Of a stretch of DNA of 64,000 nt, positions 2-31,311 are shown piece by piece. The stretch lies in the sequence record KT321315.1; one strand, written 5' to 3'. The stretch is from Enterobacter phage phiEap-3. Positions within the stretch are counted from its first letter, which is position 1; every line of letters starts with the position of its first letter. The notes beneath the pieces were generated by a model, which saw only the letters and a program-made list of their open reading frames with translations, did no database searches and had not been told where the DNA came from. The translations under genes and the position numbers were made by a program.

Positions 2-2407
2 GTAGGCAATCCGGTTTCCCGTACCGTTGCTTATCAGAGCGCTAACACTACGTATGTGTTAGGATACGATCGCATATTTTACGGGCGCACGTCAACAGAT
101 ATTCGTTGGTCTTCTGATGAAGTTCGTTTTTCTGCTGATGATGTAACGTTTGCGAAGCTGGGGAACCAGTCAGGGTTAGATTTTGATGTTGACTCATACA
201 ACACGTATGCGCGTCTACCGGGCGGAGTGTCGAAGTATGCCGAAGCTATGGCTTGTTCTAGTGACTGGCTCTACGTGGCTGCTAAGAACGTTATGCGCCG
301 TATTGCGTTACGTAACACACCAATTGATACTGATCCTGGTTCGCCGACCTTTGGTGAACGTATTTTTGATGAAGTTTCATATACCATCGTACCAGGAAAT
401 GATAAAATTGTTGTTAAAAAAATGGACGTGCTGAATGACCGTCTGTACGTTCTGGTAACTGGTGAAGTTAAAACGGCGATGATGGATCCGACTGTCAAGG
501 CTAACGTGATCCCATCAAATGATGCTGGCGTTTATCTGTGGGATGAGACTGAAAAGACGTTTACCCGTGTTTATGGTAAAACCGAAGAGGAACGTTTTTA
601 TATCACTCATGAATATACCAATATGTCAACTAACGGCGACGAAGTTTACATTTCTGTTGGTAACTACAAATATCCAGGAACTTTGCCAGATCCAGATCTG
701 GTTGAAAAGTATCCGGAAGATGTGCATTCAGCGGTGAAATACGATCTTGTTCCTGGTTATACTGCGAGCATTTCGATTAACTTTGCTACAGTTCGAGCAA
801 ATCAGAACGATCCTACAGTATGGAACTTTGGGCCGCAAGAGTACTACAATGAAGCAAACTTTAGCTGGCATTTCCGCGATAAGGTTAGCACATGGATCAC
901 CAATGATAACCGTCCTCTGGTGGTTTATCCGGAAACCCTGTATACTCTGGTTACTGATAGCGCGTCTCCTGCGTCAACGATTCGTGTAAACCATGAAGTT
1001 TGGGACAAAGGAACAGTTACTATCTACTTGAATAATATCAAGTTTACTGGTTTTACGAAGTACACAAACGGCGTTCTGTTGTATCGCTCAGGTGGTAGGA
1101 TTATTGGATTCTATGAACTGTCATACCGTGCAAGGGATGAACTCACTATTTTCTGGAAACCTGATAACACTTTAATGGTGGCAAGTCTGGTTAATCAGGA
1201 ACGTGAAAACCCATACACGCCGGATATTGAACCTGGACTAATCGACCCTGATCTGAGTCACATGATCACTCGTTTTGCTCCGCAAAGCTATCTGGACAAC
1301 CAACAGTTCGAAAAATTTGGTGAATACTATCTGCAATATATTTCGTTGGGTAGCAACAGTTACTATAACAAATTGCTGAACCTCATCCGGAACAAATATC
1401 CGAGAGAGAAAAACAACGTTGAATATTTGTGGTCTGAAATTAACCGCCGTAACATTTACCTGGATAAAACCAAACGTGAGGCAGTGGTTAGATTTTTTGA
1501 ATCACGTGCAAGCGATTTCTATTCAACAAAAGGGATTGAGGCAAGTTATACGTTCCTGTTTAAATTGCTGTATAACGAAGATGTTTCCGTTGAGATCGAA
1601 AGCTCCAACAGTCTCGAATATGATATTTTGGTTAGTTCAACAAATATCAGTCAGGATATCGTAGGCCGGACGATCTATACACCAACTGGACGCGCTAACG
1701 TTACATACATCGAACGTGAATATGAAAATGGTCAATTGCGTTGGTCAATGACTCTGCATAATGCTCAAGGTAACTTTATCGAAGGACAGGTTGTCAAGTC
1801 AGAAAAAACCAATTTCACCGGAATGGTAATTCGTGGTGTTCGCGGTAAACAAATGGCTAACAACTCGATCGACTATATCAACCGTGGACGATCTTACTAT
1901 GTGATGAAAATTCGTTCAAATCTACCGACTTCCCGTTATAAGGATGACGTATTGAGGTTTGTTCATCCGGTAGGATTCGGCTTTATGGGTATCACGATGT
2001 TAACAGTATTCATCAACTCTGGTTTGTCAATGACTCATAACGAGACAATCATTGATATTCTGAGAAACTACCGTTTCGATAGTGGTTATCCTAAGTTCTG
2101 GCCTGATCGCATTGCGAGTATGGACGGTAACGGAAACCAACAATTCGACCTGGTTACTGGTGAACCTCTGTACACCGCACACCCGCGAGCGGGGGAACCT
2201 TTTGATGTGCCTCCGGAATATGACATTGAAGAAAAACCGCTTAACGGTGTTCTTCCTTCTGCGCGACGGTTCGATCAAAGTCCGTTGTTCGATTGCTCAG
2301 GCGTTAAATATTCACAGTTCCGTAATTTGGTGGATAGACGACTGAAAGATGATGCAGGAAACCCACGTGATCCAAATCCTCCATCACAGATTAAGGTAGG
2401 AAATTAA
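2..2407 (+). CDS. 7: Baseplate wedge protein gp7, C-terminal ~800 aa; the 5' end lies outside the window
   Basis: The reading frame is open from the window edge; the track 'M' at 56 is a GTG inside the frame. The ORF is larger than gp6 and sits immediately upstream of gp8 in the conserved T4 order 7-8-9-10-11-12-wac. Confidence 0.6.
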   Translation, partial: VGNPVSRTVAYQSANTTYVLGYDRIFYGRTSTDIRWSSDEVRFSADDVTFAKLGNQSGLDFDVDSYNTYARLPGGVSKYAEAMACSSDWLYVAAKNVMRRIALRNTPIDTDPGSPTFGERIFDEVSYTIVPGNDKIVVKKMDVLNDRLYVLVTGEVKTAMMDPTVKANVIPSNDAGVYLWDETEKTFTRVYGKTEEERFYITHEYTNMSTNGDEVYISVGNYKYPGTLPDPDLVEKYPEDVHSAVKYDLVPGYTASISINFATVRANQNDPTVWNFGPQEYYNEANFSWHFRDKVSTWITNDNRPLVVYPETLYTLVTDSASPASTIRVNHEVWDKGTVTIYLNNIKFTGFTKYTNGVLLYRSGGRIIGFYELSYRARDELTIFWKPDNTLMVASLVNQERENPYTPDIEPGLIDPDLSHMITRFAPQSYLDNQQFEKFGEYYLQYISLGSNSYYNKLLNLIRNKYPREKNNVEYLWSEINRRNIYLDKTKREAVVRFFESRASDFYSTKGIEASYTFLFKLLYNEDVSVEIESSNSLEYDILVSSTNISQDIVGRTIYTPTGRANVTYIEREYENGQLRWSMTLHNAQGNFIEGQVVKSEKTNFTGMVIRGVRGKQMANNSIDYINRGRSYYVMKIRSNLPTSRYKDDVLRFVHPVGFGFMGITMLTVFINSGLSMTHNETIIDILRNYRFDSGYPKFWPDRIASMDGNGNQQFDLVTGEPLYTAHPRAGEPFDVPPEYDIEEKPLNGVLPSARRFDQSPLFDCSGVKYSQFRNLVDRRLKDDAGNPRDPNPPSQIKVGN

Positions 2408-3400
2408 ATGGCACAACAAAACTTGTATCGGTCGGTAATTACTGCAAAATTCCGAACCGAAAACTTGATGAACTTCAAAGATATGATCGGCGATGCCGCC
2501 GATCTAAACACGATTTATATGTCTATTGGGCGAACTGAATCATGGGCGGATAACGAATCCGACCCTAACTTTGCCCCGCCATATCCAAATGATAGCACCG
2601 ATGGTGTTAGTGATATGTGGACGCATATGATCGGGGCTACTAAAGTTCCTGGTGATATGATAGATGCAATTTTACCACGTAAAGACTGGGGTGATACTCG
2701 CTATCCAAACCCGAAAATCTTTTACTTTAACGATATTGTTGTTGTAAACACCGCGCCTTATAACCGTACTGATCCGGGTAAAGGTTGGATGGTTTATCGT
2801 GTAGTTGATGTTCCTGATATCGGTTCTTGCTCCATTTCGAGCATTACCGGAAAACTTGAATGTATCAGGATCGGCGGTATCTGGAGTCCGTCTCATGAAT
2901 CCAGTGAACCTCCACGCGGAGAAGCTAACGGGATCGACATGGGCGACGGCTATAAATGGGAATACCTCTACACAATCCCGCCAGATGTCGTGATCAACCG
3001 CTGTACGAACGAACATATCGTAGTTCCTTTCCCTGGCGAACTGGAAGAGGATCCGGTACGTTGGGGTTATGATAACGTGATTCAATGGTATCCAGGACAA
3101 TACGATCTAGTGTATCGGTTGAAGGTGAATTCAATGCGTTTTCGTGCGTACATGGATTCTCTTTTCTTCCCGCAATCTACGCTCCCTGGTAACAAAGGGT
3201 TCCGTCAGATAAGTATTATTGTAAACCCGTTGATTAAAAAGGCAAGCCCGACCGAACCTGAAAAGAAAGCAACTGGTGATTACTATAATGCTAACGCGCT
3301 TGAACCTGATTCCGGACGTATGATTTACATGGAAAACAGACAACCTATTATTCGCTCCCTTGATCAGACTGAGGAAGTGAGTATTGTATTCGAATTCTAA
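2408..3400 (+). CDS. 8: Baseplate wedge protein gp8
   Basis: 330 aa versus 334 aa in T4. The ATG overlaps the gp7 stop (TAAATG). Position is between gp7 and gp9. Confidence 0.75.
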   Translation: MAQQNLYRSVITAKFRTENLMNFKDMIGDAADLNTIYMSIGRTESWADNESDPNFAPPYPNDSTDGVSDMWTHMIGATKVPGDMIDAILPRKDWGDTRYPNPKIFYFNDIVVVNTAPYNRTDPGKGWMVYRVVDVPDIGSCSISSITGKLECIRIGGIWSPSHESSEPPRGEANGIDMGDGYKWEYLYTIPPDVVINRCTNEHIVVPFPGELEEDPVRWGYDNVIQWYPGQYDLVYRLKVNSMRFRAYMDSLFFPQSTLPGNKGFRQISIIVNPLIKKASPTEPEKKATGDYYNANALEPDSGRMIYMENRQPIIRSLDQTEEVSIVFEF

Positions 3401-3409
3401 GGAAAAACA

Positions 3410-4273
3410 ATGGCTTACCAAACAGCAAAAAAACTAATTGATGTCGGTGAAATCGGCAACCCATCAACAGGCGATCCGCTTTATGATGGTGGTGTTAAAC
3501 TGAACGAAATGATCACCAACGTTTATAATGCGTTTGGTGATGTGCGTATGCTGTCTGCAAACGAAGGTGTCGGTAACATGGTGATCCATGCTACCGGATA
3601 CTATCAGAAATTACCACGCACTTACTATTCAAGTACACCGATCGAACTGGGTTCCCTGCATGACATGGATACTTCAACAGGTTCGATTACCGTTGTTCTT
3701 CCTTCTGGTAAGGTTGGCGAAGGTTGCTACTTCATAAATAGTACGGGTAGTGTCTCTGTTGATCGTCCTATCGCGTTTCGTCCTCAAGTTGGCGATACAA
3801 TCGCGGGGGTTGCAGACCAGTTGTACATCACGTCACCTTACACCTTTGTAAAAATATGGTGTACCAAAAAAGAAGGTGCGATCACAACATGGGATTATTC
3901 TGTAGAATCTATGTTCGGTTCTAAAACGATGCCTGTTGACACTACGGCGCTTGTACTGAAAGCAAACCCGACTGCTATTCCTATGTTCGGATATAGCGAA
4001 TTTAGCGGGGCTAAGGTGCTCGTATACGCAGAAAACGTAGCTGGTACAGTTACCAAAATGGCGGAAGTTTTAATGACCGTGGATCGTGTAAACAAAACGA
4101 TTTATTCAACGGAATACGCTATTTTGAAAAACAGTGAAGATGAAATGTTTACATTAAACTTTACTGTCGGTGCTGGTGATGTCGTATACGCTAACGTGCA
4201 AGCGATCAAAGAAGATCGAATTAAATTCACGATTAAAGCAATCGATACGATTAAATCAGGGATCGCGTCATGA
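3410..4273 (+). CDS. 9: Baseplate wedge / long-tail-fibre attachment protein gp9
   Basis: 287 aa versus 288 aa in T4. Synteny. An AAGGAAAAACAATG ribosome-binding site is present. Confidence 0.75.
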   Translation: MAYQTAKKLIDVGEIGNPSTGDPLYDGGVKLNEMITNVYNAFGDVRMLSANEGVGNMVIHATGYYQKLPRTYYSSTPIELGSLHDMDTSTGSITVVLPSGKVGEGCYFINSTGSVSVDRPIAFRPQVGDTIAGVADQLYITSPYTFVKIWCTKKEGAITTWDYSVESMFGSKTMPVDTTALVLKANPTAIPMFGYSEFSGAKVLVYAENVAGTVTKMAEVLMTVDRVNKTIYSTEYAILKNSEDEMFTLNFTVGAGDVVYANVQAIKEDRIKFTIKAIDTIKSGIAS

Positions 4274-21196: not shown

Positions 21197-22765
21197 ATGT
21201 CTAAGAAAAACGAATTGATGGAAAAATGGAACGATCTTCTGGAGTCTCAGGAAGGCTTACCGGATATCGCTACCAAATCCAAAAAACAACTGATTGCTGC
21301 CATTATGGAAGCACAGGAAAAAGACGCAGAAGTTGATCCGGTTTACCGCGACGAGAAAATCGTTGAATCCTTCGGTGGTTTCCTGGCGGAAGCTGAAATT
21401 GCTGGTGACCACGGTTACGACGCAACCAAAATCGCTTCTGGTAACTCAAGCGGTGCTATTACCAACATCGGCCCTGCTGTAATCGGTATGGTTCGCCGTG
21501 CGATTCCTAACCTGATCGCGTTCGATATCTGCGGTGTTCAGCCTATGACTGGCCCTACTGGTCAGGTGTTCGCTCTCCGCGCAGTGTACGGCAAAGATCC
21601 GCTGGCTTCCGGTGCTAAAGAAGCATTCCATCCGATGTTCTCTCCGGATAGCATGTACTCCGGTCAGGGCGCGGCTCCGAGCAACGGCTTTACCGAACTG
21701 GCTTCCGGTACTGCGATCGCTGACGGCGCTATCGTGTTCCACGATTTCGTTGAAACTGGTCGTGTGTTCCTCCAGAACGTTTCTGGCGCTCCGGTTACTG
21801 TAACTGGTTCTACCGACGATGCTCTGGATGCTGCTGTTATCGCCGAACAGGAAAAAGGTACTCTGGCTGAAATTTCTTACGGTATGGCTACCAGTGTAGC
21901 AGAACTGCAAGAACAGTTCAACGGTTCTACTGGCAACCCGTGGAACGAAATGGGCTTCCGTATCGATAAGCAGGTTATCGAAGCACGTAGCCGCCAACTG
22001 AAAGCACAGTACTCTGTAGAACTGGCTCAGGATCTCCGCGCTGTTCACGGTATGGACGCTGACGCCGAACTGTCTGCTATTCTGGCAACCGAAATCATGC
22101 TGGAAATCAACCGCGAAATCGTTGACATGATCAACTATACCGCACAGGTTGGTAAAACTGGTTTCACTCAGACCGTTGGCTCTAAAGCTGGTGCGTTTGA
22201 CTTCCAGGATCCGATTGATGTTCGTGGCGCTCGTTGGGCTGGTGAAAGCTACAAAGCTCTGCTGATTCAGATCGACAAAGAAGCAAACGAAATCGCACGT
22301 CAAACTGGTCGTGGTGCTGGTAACTTCATCATCGCTTCCCGTAACGTGGTTTCCGCTCTGGCTCGTATCGATAGCGGTATCACTCCGGCAGGTCAAGGTC
22401 TCCAGAAGACTCTGAACGTTGACACCACTAAAGCAGTATTCGCTGGTGTTCTGGGTGGCGTGTATAAAGTATACATCGACCAGTATGCACGTGGTGATTA
22501 CTTCACCGTGGGTTACAAAGGCGATAACGAAATGGATGCTGGTATCTACTACGCTCCGTATGTTGCGCTGACCCCGCTGCGTGGTTCTGATCCGAAGAAC
22601 TTCCAGCCAGTAATGGGCTTCAAAACTCGTTACGGTGTAGGTATCAACCCGTTTGCGAACTCTCGCTCTCAGGCTCCGTCCGACCGTATCACTTCTGGTA
22701 TGATTACCAAAGAAATGTTCGGTAAAAACGCATACTTCCGTAAAGTATACGTTAAAGGGCTGTAA
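21197..22765 (+). CDS. 23: Major capsid protein gp23
   Basis: 522 aa versus 521 aa in T4. Strong codon bias typical of highly expressed genes. Followed by a strong terminator. Confidence 0.95.
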   Translation: MSKKNELMEKWNDLLESQEGLPDIATKSKKQLIAAIMEAQEKDAEVDPVYRDEKIVESFGGFLAEAEIAGDHGYDATKIASGNSSGAITNIGPAVIGMVRRAIPNLIAFDICGVQPMTGPTGQVFALRAVYGKDPLASGAKEAFHPMFSPDSMYSGQGAAPSNGFTELASGTAIADGAIVFHDFVETGRVFLQNVSGAPVTVTGSTDDALDAAVIAEQEKGTLAEISYGMATSVAELQEQFNGSTGNPWNEMGFRIDKQVIEARSRQLKAQYSVELAQDLRAVHGMDADAELSAILATEIMLEINREIVDMINYTAQVGKTGFTQTVGSKAGAFDFQDPIDVRGARWAGESYKALLIQIDKEANEIARQTGRGAGNFIIASRNVVSALARIDSGITPAGQGLQKTLNVDTTKAVFAGVLGGVYKVYIDQYARGDYFTVGYKGDNEMDAGIYYAPYVALTPLRGSDPKNFQPVMGFKTRYGVGINPFANSRSQAPSDRITSGMITKEMFGKNAYFRKVYVKGL

Positions 22766-22819: not shown

Positions 22820-22852
22820 AAGAAAAGTTTGTCAATAACGCAGGAACATAAA

Positions 22853-24142
22853 ATGAGTGAAAAATTTTACACAATTAACAAGCTGGTGCGTCAGTCACAG
22901 CTACCGCCTGGCCTGTCTAAAAAGGTTCTTGATGAGGCAACCGGAACAGAAACAATTAACGTAGCTAATACCCGTCCGGATCTGGTATCTCTTACCCGTG
23001 CGGTAAACAACCTGATCTACGGTGAACTTGTAGCGATTCAGGAAACTAATTTGCCTACCGCAACCCTGTTCGGTGTGCGTTATCGTAACCCTAAAGGCGA
23101 TATGACGTTTTCCAGCGCTGCTACCTATTCCGGTAAGTATGCAAGCCGTGATAACATTCAAGTTGGTGCGGTTGGTACTGCCTACACCAAAGGCCAAGTT
23201 TTCAAACACCCGACAAGCGATGTCGTATACGAAGCAACTGATAGCGTAACTCTCGCAGGTGCTGATATTGATGAAGCGATTATGGTCGCAGTATTCAGCA
23301 ATAAATTACGCCTGGCAAGCGAAGCCGCGCCAACAAGTCAGTATGAAACCAGCGAAGATATTAGCACAACTTCTTTCGAAATGGATCGTTGGAATATCAA
23401 CGTTCGTTCCCGTAAATTCAAAACTGAAATGACCGTGGAACTTATGCAGGATCTGGAAGCAAACCAATTCAACGCAGAAAATGTGATTGAAGATGTTCTG
23501 GGTACTGTTGCCAGCGAAGAAGTAAACAAAGATATCATCCAGACTCTGATCAACGTATCAAATCGTTACAACGTTGATGGTGTGGTCACAAATGGCATTT
23601 TCGATGCTACAACCGCATACACTGCAAAGGATGCTCCGGCTTTAGGTCGTTTCCTGTATCAATTAGTGTGTGAAATGGGGCAGGAAATGAATAGAACGAC
23701 TTCATTTGAAGCTACCTATGTCCTGGCCTCTTCTCGCGTTGTAGGCGTTCTGGCTGCGTCTGGTTGGATGCATGAAACTGATGAAACCCACCCGTTAGCA
23801 ACAGGTCGACTTAAAAACGGTTATTATGTCTATACTGACACCAATACACCGTTTGATTACCTGCTGACTGGTTGCAAGTACGATCTGGGTGAAATGGATC
23901 ATGTTGGCTCTCTGTTCTATACGCCATACACAGAAGCTGATCAGGCAGGTTCGATCAAGATTTCTGTTGATCCTCAATCCTTACAACCTAAAGTTGCTAT
24001 TCTGATGCGCTACGGTTTATCGGTTAACCCGTATACCACTGCTGCTAATGAAAGACTTGTGAAAGGTGATGACTGGGTAAACCTCTCAGGCAAATCTAAA
24101 ATGAGTCAGATTGTTGGTATCAAACTTCCTAAACTGGGTTGA
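22853..24142 (+). CDS. 24: Capsid vertex protein gp24
   Basis: gp23 paralogue, sharing the 'VELMQDLEANQFNA' and 'PYTEA' regions with T4 gp24. The internal ATG carries an AGGAACATAAAATG ribosome-binding site; the track start at 22829 is TTG. Confidence 0.9.
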   Translation: MSEKFYTINKLVRQSQLPPGLSKKVLDEATGTETINVANTRPDLVSLTRAVNNLIYGELVAIQETNLPTATLFGVRYRNPKGDMTFSSAATYSGKYASRDNIQVGAVGTAYTKGQVFKHPTSDVVYEATDSVTLAGADIDEAIMVAVFSNKLRLASEAAPTSQYETSEDISTTSFEMDRWNINVRSRKFKTEMTVELMQDLEANQFNAENVIEDVLGTVASEEVNKDIIQTLINVSNRYNVDGVVTNGIFDATTAYTAKDAPALGRFLYQLVCEMGQEMNRTTSFEATYVLASSRVVGVLAASGWMHETDETHPLATGRLKNGYYVYTDTNTPFDYLLTGCKYDLGEMDHVGSLFYTPYTEADQAGSIKISVDPQSLQPKVAILMRYGLSVNPYTTAANERLVKGDDWVNLSGKSKMSQIVGIKLPKLG

Positions 24143-27314: not shown

Positions 27315-27893
27315 ATGAGTATTGATTACGAAAAGGTTGAAGGTTTCAAAGCCTTAGAACAAAAAGAAGCCAAATTACAGCTTGCTACCTACGCGCAAGA
27401 AACGTTTGATGTCAAACTGAACCGCCAGAAGTCATTCGAAAATATGCTTGCTGATCTGGAAGCTGCTGTACCAGCAGAAAAGCCGGAACTGTTGATCGAC
27501 TCCCCTGATCCGGAAATTGCTACATACGAAGGCGAACAATCCGTTCCTGGTGTTGCTCCGGAAGTTGCAGACCAGATTGAAATTGTTCCTGACGCTCTAC
27601 AAGCTCCTGTAAGCGATTCTGAGACGGTTTCTGATGAACTGGCATGGATGGAAGGGTTTACCCCGTCTATCATCATGATGGGCCGCTCTGTTTCGAATAC
27701 TGGCTTTTATACGTGTCCGTATTGGATCTATGATTGGATGAAACAAAATCCGGATTGGTATAAGCACCCTGATGGTTGCCCTCATTATTCAGCGCGTCAA
27801 ACCCTCAAGTCGCTGGCGTGGTACATGCACCGTGATGGGATGGTTACTGTACGGGAAACCAGAAACAGCCAGTTCGACACGTTCAAAAAATAA
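27315..27893 (+). CDS. Hypothetical protein (acidic N-terminal half, Cys/His/Trp-rich C-terminus)
   Basis: The internal ATG carries a GGAGAAATACAATG ribosome-binding site. Divergent from uvsW. Confidence 0.5.
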   Translation: MSIDYEKVEGFKALEQKEAKLQLATYAQETFDVKLNRQKSFENMLADLEAAVPAEKPELLIDSPDPEIATYEGEQSVPGVAPEVADQIEIVPDALQAPVSDSETVSDELAWMEGFTPSIIMMGRSVSNTGFYTCPYWIYDWMKQNPDWYKHPDGCPHYSARQTLKSLAWYMHRDGMVTVRETRNSQFDTFKK

Positions 27894-28336: not shown

Positions 28337-28906
28337 ATGAACTTAAACCACGAATGTTTAAAAGATTTGAGCGATGGTAACGAAATTGGTAACGTTATTT
28401 TTCTTGATATCGATGGCGTTCTAAATAATATGCGGTGCATGAAATTTGGTGAACATATGGACATCGAATGCGCACGACACTTACGCCGGATAGTGAATCA
28501 CGCTAATTGTGATATCGTCATTTCCTCTACGTGGAGAATCGGCAACAGTACCCATAATCTACGTGAAATATTTTATCCGTGGGGATTGTATCGGATCATT
28601 GGTAAAACTTGCACCAACTTCCCTCATAGCACTGGAATGCGTGGTGATGAAATCAAGGCATGGATCGATACTTTCGGATGTAAAAACTATCTCATTCTTG
28701 ATGATGATACCGATATGCTTTCTTCACAAAAAGATCATTTTATTAAAACTGATGGGTTCGTTGGGTTGACCGAAGAACAATCCACTTATGCGATCCGTAA
28801 CATTTTCGGGGTTACTACTCCGTTTTGTCCTGAATGTAATGGGTATGGACGTGTTAACGGCTACGACAAATGCGGAACGTGTAACGGTAAAATACTCCGG
28901 CTATAA
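28337..28906 (+). CDS. HAD-superfamily phosphatase with C-terminal CxxC-x-CxxC zinc ribbon
   Basis: HAD motif I 'FLDIDGVLN', motif II 'VISSTW' and motif IV 'LILDDDTD'. The C-terminus is 'CPECNGYGRVNGYDKCGTCNGK'. Confidence 0.6.
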   Translation: MNLNHECLKDLSDGNEIGNVIFLDIDGVLNNMRCMKFGEHMDIECARHLRRIVNHANCDIVISSTWRIGNSTHNLREIFYPWGLYRIIGKTCTNFPHSTGMRGDEIKAWIDTFGCKNYLILDDDTDMLSSQKDHFIKTDGFVGLTEEQSTYAIRNIFGVTTPFCPECNGYGRVNGYDKCGTCNGKILRL

Positions 28907-28909
28907 ATA
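28902..28909 (+). promoter_or_regulatory. T4-type late promoter TATAAATA (hoc)
   Basis: GGCTATAAATACC ~26 nt upstream of the hoc ATG. Confidence 0.75.
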
Positions 28910-28934
28910 CCAATAAACATAAGAGGTTAAATTT

Positions 28935-29996
28935 ATGGCAATTCCTTCTGTAACAATTAGCGCCAACAAAAACGAACTTTTGATTGGCGAAACTTTGACC
29001 TTAGAGGTTGAAACTACTGAACTAGATCCGGGTGATGTGTTTCTGGCCTATCGTTGGCAAAAAGATGGTGTAGATATTCCAAGCGCAACCGCCGATACTT
29101 ACACAACTACTGTTGACGGTACAACTGCTGGCGATTATACCCTGATTTTAAAACACGGTGCTGATGAAGAATCAGCAACAGAAACCACGTCTGATACAAT
29201 CACCGTGACCACTTATCCTGTAATCGCATTTGGTACTGATTTACCTGCAACAAAATCTGTTGTTACTGGTAAAGAACTTACCCTGACTGTTGCGGTAACT
29301 GGCGGTAAAGCCCCGTATACCTACGTATGGAAACGCGGTTCTACTGTTGTTAGTGGTGATTCTGCAACCTTAACAATTAGCGCTGCTGCAAGTGGTGATG
29401 TTGGTTCATATACGGTAGAAGTGACGGATTCACTGGGTAACAGAAAAACTTCTGGTGCTTGTGCTGTTAGCGTTACGCCTGCTCTTGCATTTGATAAAAA
29501 CCTAAGCCCTACCTCTTCCGTAACACAGGATTCTGAATTGATCCTTAGTGTAACTGTATTGGGTGGTACTTCTCCTTATTCTTATGCATGGACTAAGGAT
29601 GATTCTCCGGTTGGCGACGATGCGGATACTCTTACCATAGCAAGTGCGGCTCTTGATGATGCAGGTTCGTATAAAGTTGTAGTCACTGATGCGAATTCAG
29701 ATACCATCACATCAACTGTATGTGTCGTAACTGTTAATCAAAATTCTGATGATCTCGTTTCTAAATGGACGGTTCACCCGATTCCGTGGCGTGATACCAG
29801 TTTTACCCCGATCGGTTATTGGGTACTTGATGAAATTCTGTATCAGAAAGCACAGGGTAAAGATTGGAAAACTGATTATGCTGATTACAAGTATAGTGAG
29901 GAAGTACAAACGATCCTGAAAGCGTTTATGGAAAATGGTGAATGTGAGATCCAGGATTCACGAAACGGTTATATTCATAAAATGAGTGAAATCTAA
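28935..29996 (+). CDS. hoc: Hoc (highly immunogenic outer capsid protein): three Ig-like repeats plus a C-terminal capsid-binding domain
   Basis: Three ~88-aa internal repeats with the 'YxWxKxG...D(S/A)GxYxVxVTD' Ig signature. TATAAATA late promoter at 28902. The domain architecture matches T4 Hoc. Confidence 0.8.
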   Translation: MAIPSVTISANKNELLIGETLTLEVETTELDPGDVFLAYRWQKDGVDIPSATADTYTTTVDGTTAGDYTLILKHGADEESATETTSDTITVTTYPVIAFGTDLPATKSVVTGKELTLTVAVTGGKAPYTYVWKRGSTVVSGDSATLTISAAASGDVGSYTVEVTDSLGNRKTSGACAVSVTPALAFDKNLSPTSSVTQDSELILSVTVLGGTSPYSYAWTKDDSPVGDDADTLTIASAALDDAGSYKVVVTDANSDTITSTVCVVTVNQNSDDLVSKWTVHPIPWRDTSFTPIGYWVLDEILYQKAQGKDWKTDYADYKYSEEVQTILKAFMENGECEIQDSRNGYIHKMSEI

Positions 29997-30006
29997 GAGG
30001 CTTTAA

Positions 30007-30282
30007 ATGGCAACTGAAAAATGGACTACGGTTCATCCTATTCCGTGGAGAAATACCAGTTTTACATATCTTCCATACTGGCTATACGATATTATCGTTG
30101 ATGCTTTTGAGAAAGGCGAAGACTGGCGTGATTATGCGGAAGAAAAATATAAATTAGAGTTTGATACTCTGAAAGAGGCGTTTGAAGATTATGGTGATAT
30201 TCATGTAATCGAATCTCGTAATGGTAAACTGGTTAGTCTGTTGTCATTGACTCCTGCTCCTGAACCAGATCCTGACCAATAA
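30007..30282 (+). CDS. Stand-alone paralogue of the Hoc C-terminal (capsid-binding) domain
   Basis: 'KWTTVHPIPWRNTSFTYLPYWLYD...ESRNGK' aligns with the Hoc C-terminus 'KWTVHPIPWRDTSFTPIGYWVLDE...DSRNGY'. GAGG ribosome-binding site. Confidence 0.6.
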   Translation: MATEKWTTVHPIPWRNTSFTYLPYWLYDIIVDAFEKGEDWRDYAEEKYKLEFDTLKEAFEDYGDIHVIESRNGKLVSLLSLTPAPEPDPDQ

Positions 30283-30295
30283 AATAAGGCAAACA

Positions 30296-30814
30296 ATGAA
30301 TACACTTCTTTTTGATTTCGACGACACTTTAGCAGAATTTTCTCAGGCTTTTTATGATAAGTTCGGTGTACGTCCGGAAGGAACGCCAAAAGAACGATAT
30401 GACGAAATGGCGGCTTCTTTGGTGCGTACTGATTTTTATAAAAACCTTCCCCGTATTCAGGCTGGGATCGACCTCCTTCAATGGAGTTTCCAACGCCGAA
30501 TCGGTGATCCTGCTACTTTGCTGCTTCGCGCGGAAGCGGTCAGCCCTCTTTGGGTTATGAAAGAAAAACTGAACTATACAGATAAGATTTGCGCTGAACT
30601 GGGGATCTCTCGTCTCGATTTTAGTCGCATTGACTATCCGGAACAGTTCGCAGAACATGCCTATCGTGGTGTTCTGATTTCCCGCAACCAGAAACATCTT
30701 GAAATCTGGAACAATTCTCATCTAGCTAATAAAGTTCCTGGTATTTTCCTTGCGGAAACACTGGAAGAAAATATTCAGCTAGTCACGGAAGCGCTTGCAA
30801 AGGCTAATCAATAA
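30296..30814 (+). CDS. NT5C-like 5'(3')-deoxyribonucleotidase (HAD family), paralogue A
   Basis: Motif I 'LLFDFDDTLAEF'. 'TDFYKNLPRIQAGIDLL' parallels 'TDFYENLEPIKEGFELF' in the convergent gene. Confidence 0.55.
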   Translation: MNTLLFDFDDTLAEFSQAFYDKFGVRPEGTPKERYDEMAASLVRTDFYKNLPRIQAGIDLLQWSFQRRIGDPATLLLRAEAVSPLWVMKEKLNYTDKICAELGISRLDFSRIDYPEQFAEHAYRGVLISRNQKHLEIWNNSHLANKVPGIFLAETLEENIQLVTEALAKANQ

Positions 30815-30821
30815 CAAAAAA

Positions 30822-30848
30822 GGGAACCGCAATGGTTCCCTTTCTTTT
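30822..30848. terminator. Bidirectional terminator between convergent NT5C paralogues
   Basis: GGGAACC-GCAAT-GGTTCCC with AAAAAA on the 5' side and TTTCTTTT on the 3' side. Confidence 0.75.
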
Positions 30849-31311
30849 ACAATCTTTTTAATTCATCAAGCGCGGTTTTCTTATCACCAACAAAGAGGAT
30901 TGCTTTACCTCCTGCTTTTCTGAAAGGCAACACCGCTTTTGCCCGATCGTCAAACAGAATTCCTTTACCAGCGAATGCTGCTTTTTCATGGCTACTTTTA
31001 ACGTAGTGGAATTCTGGAACGTAACCCAATACTTTTTGTAATGCTTTACGTTTTTGTTCGGCAACACCGTCAGAATTGAATTTACCGACACTGGTTAGTA
31101 TTGCTACATCACCAAGTGTTCTTAAATGATGGAATAATTCAAATCCTTCTTTGATTGGTTCCAGATTTTCGTAGAAATCAGTTTTGGCAATTTTTGCTTT
31201 GCACTTTTTCAACTCATCTTCTGTCATCATCGAGGGTTCGCCATACATTGGCACAAATGAACCTTCCCAGTCGAACAATACACCATCCATATCAAAGAAA
31301 AACTTATTCAT
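30847..31311 (-). CDS. NT5C-like 5'(3')-deoxyribonucleotidase (HAD family), paralogue B
   Basis: Motif I 'FFFDMDGVLFDW', typical of the NT5C family. Shares the bidirectional terminator 30822-30848 with paralogue A. Confidence 0.6.
   Translation of the reverse strand: MNKFFFDMDGVLFDWEGSFVPMYGEPSMMTEDELKKCKAKIAKTDFYENLEPIKEGFELFHHLRTLGDVAILTSVGKFNSDGVAEQKRKALQKVLGYVPEFHYVKSSHEKAAFAGKGILFDDRAKAVLPFRKAGGKAILFVGDKKTALDELKRL

Follow-up and report, generated by a model that had tools for sequence, protein, structure and literature searches.

A stand-alone Hoc capsid-binding domain encoded beside full-length Hoc in Enterobacter phage phiEap-3 and its Slopekvirus relatives

Enterobacter phage phiEap-3 carries two adjacent genes for proteins of the Hoc type, the second of which is a short gene referred to here as mini-hoc. 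The DNA analysed is a stretch of 64 000 nucleotides (nt) of this phage (sequence record KT321315.1; hereafter 'the window'), and the region concerned is 98–99% identical to the KP15/KP27 group of Klebsiella phages (genus Slopekvirus, family Straboviridae). The gene order is uvsW (on the minus strand), inh, an open reading frame (ORF) of 103 amino acids (aa), a gene for a 189-aa HAD-like/zinc-ribbon protein (28337–28906, plus strand; PF18143, E 3.5e-29), hoc, mini-hoc, a 5′–3′ deoxyribonucleotidase (dNMPase) gene and a terminator-like hairpin. The canonical hoc gene (28935..29996, plus strand) encodes a 353-aa protein with three Ig_3 domains (Pfam Ig_3, E 3.9e-21, in three stretches; PHROG 1149, E 6.2e-65), followed by a C-terminal capsid-binding domain (CBD; aa 271–353, nt 29745–29993). 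The ATG of mini-hoc (30007..30282, plus strand) lies 10 nt past the hoc stop codon and opens an ORF of 91 aa, which from its homology, fold and synteny is recognized as a Hoc that begins with its CBD and lacks a payload. The folded CBD spans aa ~10–81, as delimited by AlphaFold2 (AF2) confidence, and is followed by an acidic proline-rich stub, TPAPEPDPDQ (aa 82–91, nt 30250–30279), which is variable and is read as the remnant of an inter-domain linker. The whole protein is acidic, with a pI of 4.4 and a charge of about −10. Co-directional with mini-hoc and starting 13 nt after it, the dNMPase gene (30296..30814, plus strand; PHROG 2643, E 6.5e-51) is the last before the hairpin, and this synteny is kept in KP27, IME-CF2, leN and Lemur_ER36.

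The signals around the two genes are consistent with joint expression. A Shine–Dalgarno sequence, AAGAGG (29995..30000, plus strand), stands 6 nt ahead of the mini-hoc ATG and overlaps the hoc TAA (29994–29996); it carries a ribosome-binding-site annotation in the KLB10 and KLB3 records, and a similar sequence (TAAGAGG) precedes both hoc and mini-hoc. From this layout we infer that mini-hoc may be translationally coupled to hoc. An exact-motif search found a T4-type late promoter motif, TATAAATA (28902..28909, plus strand; a motif match only), 26 nt 5′ of the hoc ATG, where it overlaps the stop codon of the HAD-like gene; in IME-CF2 the same layout of HAD stop codon and TATAAATA lies directly 5′ of a Hoc gene of the CBD-first type described below. 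The hairpin (30816..30846), with a 13-bp stem, was listed on the minus strand by the terminator scan and is annotated on both strands in KP27; being terminator-like, it would end a unit of hoc, mini-hoc and the dNMPase gene. Between the motif at 28902 and this hairpin the scan found no terminator, and a scan for sigma-70 promoters gave matches no higher than expected from shuffled sequence. The possibility that mini-hoc is an extension of hoc, reached by read-through or frameshifting, was rejected: it is in another frame, and read-through of the hoc TAA meets a stop after six codons.

The product of mini-hoc is a real, intact Hoc capsid-binding domain. An earlier note on this DNA had described it as a stand-alone copy of that domain, devoid of Ig domains and next to hoc, and the description holds. 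By BLASTP mini-Hoc is identical to the adjacent Hoc at 35 of 71 positions (49%; Hoc residues 276–345, E 2e-20), a Pfam search found in it no Ig domain and no other Pfam domain, and the strings quoted in the note, 'KWTTVHPIPWRNTSFTYLPYWLYD' and 'ESRNGK', are correct. It also matches the PHROG families of Hoc-like head decoration proteins (the 1149/14282/11091 group) with E-values of 5.6e-62 (PHROG 14282), 1e-40 and 5.8e-23, and T4 Hoc at residues 293–365 (phmmer against the PDB, E 2.6e-10), with an identity to T4 Hoc of about 32–36%. In an alignment of 33 capsid-binding domains, mini-Hoc keeps every invariant or near-invariant column (P11, W25, I30, S70 and G73; R15, D28, W40, Y48, T54, R71 and N72). 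The equivalents of T4 His295, Arg300, Trp310 and Asp313 are H10, R15, W25 and D28, and a Glu-Ser-Arg-Asn-Gly (ESRNG) loop occupies residues 69–73. In the C-terminal domain of T4 Hoc (residues ~281–376; PDB 8T1X, 8T9R and 5VF3), the roles of the conserved contact residues have been described and the ESRNG loop was found at the capsomer centre by cryo-electron microscopy (cryo-EM; PMC10385173).

Structure prediction, proposed in the earlier note as a check, bears out the likeness to the Hoc C-domain. The AF2 model, built on the same 33-sequence alignment, has a mean pLDDT of 86.5 and a pTM of 0.73, with low confidence in residues 82–91. When this model was compared with the PDB using Foldseek, the sole match at E ≤ 0.001 was 8t1x_X, the C-domain of T4 Hoc as bound to the gp23* capsomer (E 3.7e-6, prob 1.00, TM 0.67/0.64, root-mean-square deviation 2.1 Å, 74 columns), and the model shows the fold by which the Hoc CBD is defined in 8T1X, a four-stranded sheet as base with two helices. 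The two domains are thus homologous (by sequence and by fold) and share the His/Arg/Trp/Asp and ESRNG determinants, acidity and the docking loop on gp23 (see below). Unlike T4 Hoc, mini-Hoc stands alone without Ig domains, has the domain at its N-terminus and has Lys at the equivalent of Tyr360. In the strict sense of the name, a string of displayed Ig-like domains, this protein of 91 aa without a Pfam domain is not a Hoc. Nor is it an Inh: its match to the Inh family (PHROG 1051) is marginal (E 0.0086) and covers the C-terminal 62 profile positions alone, and it lacks the full Inh architecture of an N-terminal region plus a C-domain with CPxWIYDW and RETRNS motifs.

The closest relatives of mini-Hoc are proteins in which the CBD comes first and the payload follows. 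A word-indexed protein search gave only three close matches, and it was from an exhaustive search of 1.84 billion representatives that this CBD-first clade emerged: the best relatives (54–74% identity) hold the CBD at residues 1–85 of proteins of 165–246 aa, most other matches have it at the C-terminus, and a few are short proteins consisting of the CBD only. After the anchor, the CBD-first relatives bear Big_2, Ig_3 or GDSL-lipase payloads. The PHROG matches of mini-Hoc fall at profile positions 1–90 of 246, 1–84 of 167 and 1–71 of 502 (the CBD-first subfamily being represented by PHROGs 14282, 11091 and 9703), and the protein bears the signatures of the clade (KWTTV, Pro23 and Asp-Ile-Ile), unlike the neighbouring Hoc. 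It is 58–83% identical to clade members as against 44–49% to the CBD of its own neighbour, and between the two adjacent CBDs synonymous sites are saturated (pS 0.67–0.84). That mini-hoc is a recent tandem duplicate of the 3′ end of hoc, the origin implied by the earlier note and suggested by adjacency, equal orientation and the similar Shine–Dalgarno sequences, is contradicted by this divergence, by the clade signatures and by an identity of 72–83% to same-slot CBD-first genes of other phages, and may be dismissed as highly improbable.

Two groups of phages hold these same-slot genes. In Pseudotevenvirus (IME-CF2, leN, RB43 and RB16) a 167-aa protein combines a CBD, 72–74% identical to mini-Hoc, with a Big_2 domain; in IME-CF2 and leN its gene occupies the slot of mini-hoc, between the HAD-like and dNMPase genes, and it is the sole Hoc-like locus there. 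The second case, the Slopekvirus-type Klebsiella phage vB_KpnM_Lemur_ER36 (PP738775.1), was found through a search with the Big_2 payload. Its cassette at 1734–4246 (L014) corresponds to window positions 28337–30282 and encodes a 469-aa canonical Hoc with different Ig domains, then, after 10 nt and a TAAGAGG Shine–Dalgarno sequence, a 164-aa protein composed of a CBD and a Big_2 domain. Thus the second Hoc of Lemur_ER36 likewise follows a canonical one, whereas the Pseudotevenvirus protein is the only Hoc of its phage. The genes flanking the Lemur_ER36 cassette are 99–100% identical in protein to those of the window, with synonymous divergence (dS) of 0.02–0.09, but in the block of HAD-like gene, hoc and second hoc dS rises to 0.67–1.03. 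So divergent a block between near-identical flanks is evidently the product of recombination, by which the cassette was exchanged, the HAD-like gene moving together with the hoc genes.

The first 83 residues of the Lemur_ER36 protein are 83% identical to mini-Hoc and include the otherwise unusual string HVIESRNG(R/K)LVSLLSLTP. Past the shared LVSLLSLTP junction (the boundary reads '...SLTP/FTPA' in this group of proteins), Lemur_ER36 continues into its Big_2 domain and mini-Hoc into APEPDPDQ and a stop codon. The gene thus ends eight residues beyond the junction, the next gene starts 13 nt later, and no payload remnant is present: the ~80-residue Big_2 payload carried by the Lemur_ER36 and Pseudotevenvirus (RB43, RB16, IME-CF2 and leN) proteins is deleted. 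A tblastn search with this payload gave 67 records, of which all but four are at least 89% identical to the IME-CF2 payload (Pseudotevenvirus-type); the remaining four are Lemur_ER36 and three weaker matches, and no KP15/KP27-type Slopekvirus is among the matches listed. This points to loss rather than gene fission, in which the payload would be encoded elsewhere and dock on the stub, and the latter was rejected. Taken together, the CBD+Big_2 ortholog in Lemur_ER36, the common junction and the want of a payload elsewhere show, at the level of sequence comparison, that mini-Hoc represents the second gene in a two-Hoc cassette, the CBD-first one, in an allele from which the payload has been deleted, and the tandem arrangement of two Hoc genes is by the same comparison older than the deletion. 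The ancestor was a decoration protein in which a short linker joined an N-terminal CBD to an Ig-like payload (Big_2) at the C-terminus; in the KP15/KP27-type lineage a clean deletion of the payload just past LVSLLSLTP left the CBD and a 10-residue acidic proline-rich stub.

Payloads also vary elsewhere in the clade. A 184-aa protein (P0004) and the 167-aa protein of IME-CF2 (L002:4001-4504) have CBDs that are 94% identical and payloads of different kinds, Ig_3 and Big_2 respectively, both joined at a common FTPA junction, and Ig2 in the Hoc of the window shares 45% identity with the Ig_3 payload of the former. To judge from these alignments, one type of Ig domain can precede or follow the anchor, and payloads swap as modules. 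In the original RB43 record (AY967407.1, 143352–143852) only a 61-aa fragment of the CBD+Big_2 Hoc is annotated (P0003, 'Hoc large outer capsid') and the payload is called a separate hypothetical protein; resequenced RB43 records show a contiguous gene region, and the fragment is probably an artefact of sequencing or annotation, not a second natural mini-Hoc.

Phages with two Hoc-type proteins are already known, in Muldoon and in Enterobacter phage PG7, and the second Hoc-like protein of PG7 was described as having an N-terminal CBD (Fokine et al. 2023; PMC10385173). This 511-aa PG7 protein, an N-terminal CBD followed by a GDSL lipase (homologues in RZH and KLB31), belongs to the CBD-first clade of mini-Hoc (58–59% identity) and, like mini-Hoc, coexists with a canonical Hoc; it differs in lying at another locus, beside a topoisomerase gene, and in its large enzymatic payload. 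Such 511-aa proteins were found in Karamvirus and Kanagawavirus, and Krischvirus JK32 has two tandem hoc genes.

The site to which mini-Hoc would bind is encoded in the same window. The major capsid protein gp23 (21197..22765; the vertex protein gp24 follows at 22829..24142) contains, at 22178..22234 on the plus strand, a segment that phmmer aligns with Gly326–Arg344 of T4 gp23, the Hoc docking loop: GSKAGAFDFQDPIDVRGAR in the window and GSKAGVFDFQDPIDIRGAR in T4, identical at 17 of 19 positions. The equivalents of Asp336 and Arg344, which in T4 gp23 contact Arg300 and Asn358 of Hoc (PMC10385173), are retained. T4 has a single Hoc site per hexamer, and the site arises only after capsid expansion (PMC10385173).

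On this basis the following sequence of events may be proposed. Late transcription from the TATAAATA motif at 28902 would cover hoc and mini-hoc together, and mini-hoc would be translated from the Shine–Dalgarno sequence that overlaps the hoc stop. Because of that overlap, and with no terminator before 30816, Hoc and mini-Hoc are likely to be made together and probably in comparable amounts. The β-sheet base and ESRNG loop of mini-Hoc would then dock in the centre of the expanded gp23* hexamer as does the T4 Hoc C-domain, and since the T4 CBD contacts all six subunits of a hexamer, two CBD proteins should share, and compete for, the ~155 sites. With one CBD per hexamer, the capsid would mix hexamers that bear Ig fibres (from Hoc) with hexamers that are capped by a small acidic blank. 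The blank would thereby reduce the density of fibres, and hexamer centres would stay covered and negatively charged. Competition with Hoc for hexamer centres, which the earlier note had raised, is in our view the most economical mechanism; on that note's other suggestions, a decoy or a cap that evades immunity, the results speak neither for nor against. It is somewhat probable that in mini-Hoc the second member of a two-Hoc cassette has been cut down to its anchor, to act as a blank cap sharing hexamer sites with Hoc. A more specific version, which is only tentative, is that mini-Hoc is the selected 'blank' of a two-component display: by competing for the single site in each hexamer it would set the density of Ig fibres and plug every hexamer centre with negative charge, and adhesiveness would be tuned through both fibre length (one Ig or three, see below) and fibre number.

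Several observations weigh against this reading. The CBDs of mini-Hoc and Hoc differ at four of ~13 positions equivalent to T4 contacts (the Trp306, Gln354, Glu355 and Tyr360 equivalents, the last being Lys74 in mini-Hoc), and equal affinity, or even binding to the same site, is not guaranteed. We know of no phage in which the dilution of Hoc fibres has been shown to be beneficial. For Slopekvirus and Pseudotevenvirus, neither a usable proteome of virions nor cryo-EM of the capsid was found in the searched literature: the KP15/KP27 paper contains no proteome, the phiEap-3 paper reports the genome only, and gel-band mass spectrometry of the Karamvirus ECLFM1 did not report Hoc proteins. PMBT63 was set aside as a proteome source; its Hoc, of 468 aa and with 46% identity to that of T4, belongs to another type, and its paper never mentions Slopekvirus. 

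A capping role independent of display is conceivable, since hexamer-centre proteins elsewhere act as plugs or stabilizers: P4 Psu covers central holes, and T5 pb10, in which a capsid-binding domain is combined with an Ig-like one, guards against loss of the genome under extreme conditions (PMC5292684). These are monomeric or dimeric occupants of hexamer centres whose likeness to mini-Hoc is one of functional analogy only, the pb10 capsid-binding domain being described as α-helical and Psu an α-helical knotted dimer (PMC5292684).

The remaining points against the blank-cap reading come from molecular evolution, and bear at the same time on its best-surviving rival, namely that mini-Hoc is a vestigial remnant: a stub without selected function left by the payload deletion, tolerated, perhaps still expressed and binding, and conserved merely through recent kinship. 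We consider this unlikely, but it retains an appreciable share of the probability, and several observations favour it. mini-hoc is present as one full-length alignment piece at ≥97.5% identity in all 110 of the other Slopekvirus records, but the genus is about 98% identical at the locus and such unanimity is therefore weak evidence. Against Lemur_ER36 the mini-Hoc CBD has a ratio of nonsynonymous to synonymous divergence (dN/dS) of 0.144 (Nei–Gojobori method, NG86); in that genome pair the CBD of the canonical Hoc gives about half as much, 0.067, and both Inh and the HAD-like gene give 0.10. A relative-rate test hinted that the branch of mini-Hoc is the longer one when certain outgroups are used (10 unique changes against 3, p = 0.05) and not when others are, a marginal excess. 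The contact residue equivalent to Tyr360 is replaced, as noted above, and Hoc itself can be dispensed with under laboratory conditions (PMC10385173).

Other results speak against a functionless stub. The value of 0.144, like those of 0.16–0.18 against the Pseudotevenvirus phages IME-CF2 and leN, is far below 1, and because dS is high (0.86–1.37) these ratios are overestimates if anything; by a rough estimate from the Lemur_ER36 comparison, any neutral period would amount to about one-sixth of the mini-Hoc branch or less. All family-invariant residues are kept. Eight genomes that are among the most divergent of Slopekvirus show three synonymous changes and one conservative nonsynonymous change (E38D) in the CBD, and three nonsynonymous changes and an indel in the 7-codon tail, so that changes within the genus cluster in the tail and spare the fold. 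With these small numbers, Fisher's test gives p = 0.001 for CBD versus tail, and p = 0.03–0.11 for the CBD, a result that rests on four changes. The only length variant among the 40 records listed is an in-frame insertion of 6 nt (Ala-Pro) in the tail, and the Shine–Dalgarno sequence and ATG are intact. Furthermore, Morganella phage vB_Mm5 (PP397179.1, L006:3501-3866) encodes in the same uvsW–inh neighbourhood a 121-aa payload-less CBD with an acidic Pro/Glu-rich tail. It differs from mini-Hoc in its ~38-residue tail, in identity (45%), in its canonical-type signatures (Gly23 and Asp-Glu-Ile) and in being the only Hoc-like gene of its phage; as this naked CBD is the only Hoc there, such an anchor can, by analogy, be maintained as a stable end state. 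The folded domain of mini-Hoc thus looks constrained, and there may have been some relaxation following payload loss.

A second rival is that mini-Hoc and Hoc favour different classes of hexamer, for example those near the vertices or the portal where a long fibre might clash, so that they complement rather than dilute one another. The divergence of the two CBDs and of several of their contact-equivalent positions would allow this, and in T4 the vertex-proximal hexamers depart from six-fold symmetry and restrict the orientation of Hoc (PMC10385173). Site partitioning is nevertheless improbable: the window encodes a single gp23 with a docking loop almost identical to that of T4, the orthologous CBD is the only Hoc in Pseudotevenvirus and presumably serves all hexamers there, and structural evidence for distinct sites is lacking.

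Less probable still, indeed doubtful, is a role during assembly, in which the free CBD would act on intracellular gp23 assemblies, for instance by masking hexamer centres transiently or by modulating the interactions of Hoc or Inh, and not become a stable component of the virion. In its favour, the fold also occurs in Inh, a prohead-associated inhibitor encoded at the same locus (see below), and the module is not confined to external display. The nearest relatives of mini-Hoc are all, however, of the decoration type with displayed payloads, it is far nearer to Hoc CBDs than to Inh, and in T4 the Hoc site exists only on the expanded capsid.

The earlier note had placed mini-Hoc at this position instead of inh, which is mistaken. 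The gene for this prohead-protease inhibitor (27315..27893, plus strand; 192 aa; PHROG 1051, E 4.4e-62) is present upstream of hoc, as in other T4-like phages, and appears to hold a further, divergent copy of the CBD fold in its C-terminal ~62 aa (nt 27693–27878, plus strand). Comparison of the CBD and Inh profiles with hhalign gave a Prob of 94.9% and an E-value of 4.7e-8, and a hidden Markov model of the CBD scored 18–29 bits on five Inh proteins, as against a maximum of 8.5 bits over 2000 shuffles. The motifs correspond: CPYWIYDW of Inh to GYWVxDEI, PDW to DW and RETRNS to ESRNG. This profile evidence indicates homology between the Hoc CBD and the last ~62 residues of Inh, and the fold would therefore be common to three genes of the locus (inh, hoc and mini-hoc); no mention of this homology was found in the searched literature. 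In a wider and equally tentative version of the two-component reading, the Hoc anchor would be a general module for gp23 hexamer centres, used three times in one locus, with the implication that Inh too docks at hexamer centres.

Variation in hoc itself is of a different kind. The Slopekvirus gene is dimorphic, with a 1062-nt three-Ig form (353 aa) in 52 of 110 records and a 534-nt one-Ig form (177 aa; KP15, KP27, Miro and Matisse; KP27 L001:3457-3990) in 58, the latter being a clean in-frame loss of Ig2–Ig3; mini-hoc is constant in genomes of either form. Among six closely related genomes, Ig2–Ig3 (29217–29744) has 21 nonsynonymous and 25 synonymous variable sites and the Hoc CBD none and six, respectively, a pattern suggesting that selection on the domains displayed is either relaxed or diversifying. 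In CPRSB (OM971649.1, 37036–37568), the one-Ig hoc is 533 nt long instead of 534, matches in two pieces and is annotated as two coding sequences, reflecting either a frameshift or a sequencing error. Of the neighbouring genes, that for the 189-aa protein encodes a HAD domain (PF18143, the 'Swiss Army Knife RNA repair' type) and a C-terminal DnaJ-like CxxCxGxG zinc ribbon, which scores under the Pfam curated cut-off, and across the hairpin the dNMPase gene is opposed by a second, convergent gene of the deoxyribonucleotidase family (30847–31311, minus strand; named from the KP27 annotation).

mini-Hoc adds a small natural variant to a family already known and does not constitute a new system. 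Since KP15 and KP27 its gene has been annotated as Hoc-like, under names such as 'Hoc large outer capsid protein', 'hoc_1' and 'Hoc-like head decoration'. In the searched literature, no description was found of an anchor-only Hoc co-encoded with a full-length one, of the derivation of such a Hoc by clean deletion of a payload, or of the occurrence of the two alleles on near-identical backgrounds. Vaccine display on T4 has Hoc as its standard scaffold, and Hoc is also the model for the adherence of phages to mucus. For engineering, mini-Hoc offers a minimal capsid anchor of ~80 residues with a C-terminal free end, a polarity opposite to that of T4 Hoc, which could be of use. The Slopekvirus phages also provide a natural comparison set, in which payload-bearing (Lemur_ER36) and payload-less forms of the second gene, and one-Ig and three-Ig forms of Hoc, occur on almost identical backgrounds. 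If an anchor-only Hoc is indeed co-expressed with the full-length protein, this would show phages able to regulate the number of their fibres and not just the kind; if mini-Hoc is inert, the locus would still be a clean example of modules being gained and lost at one defined junction between domains.

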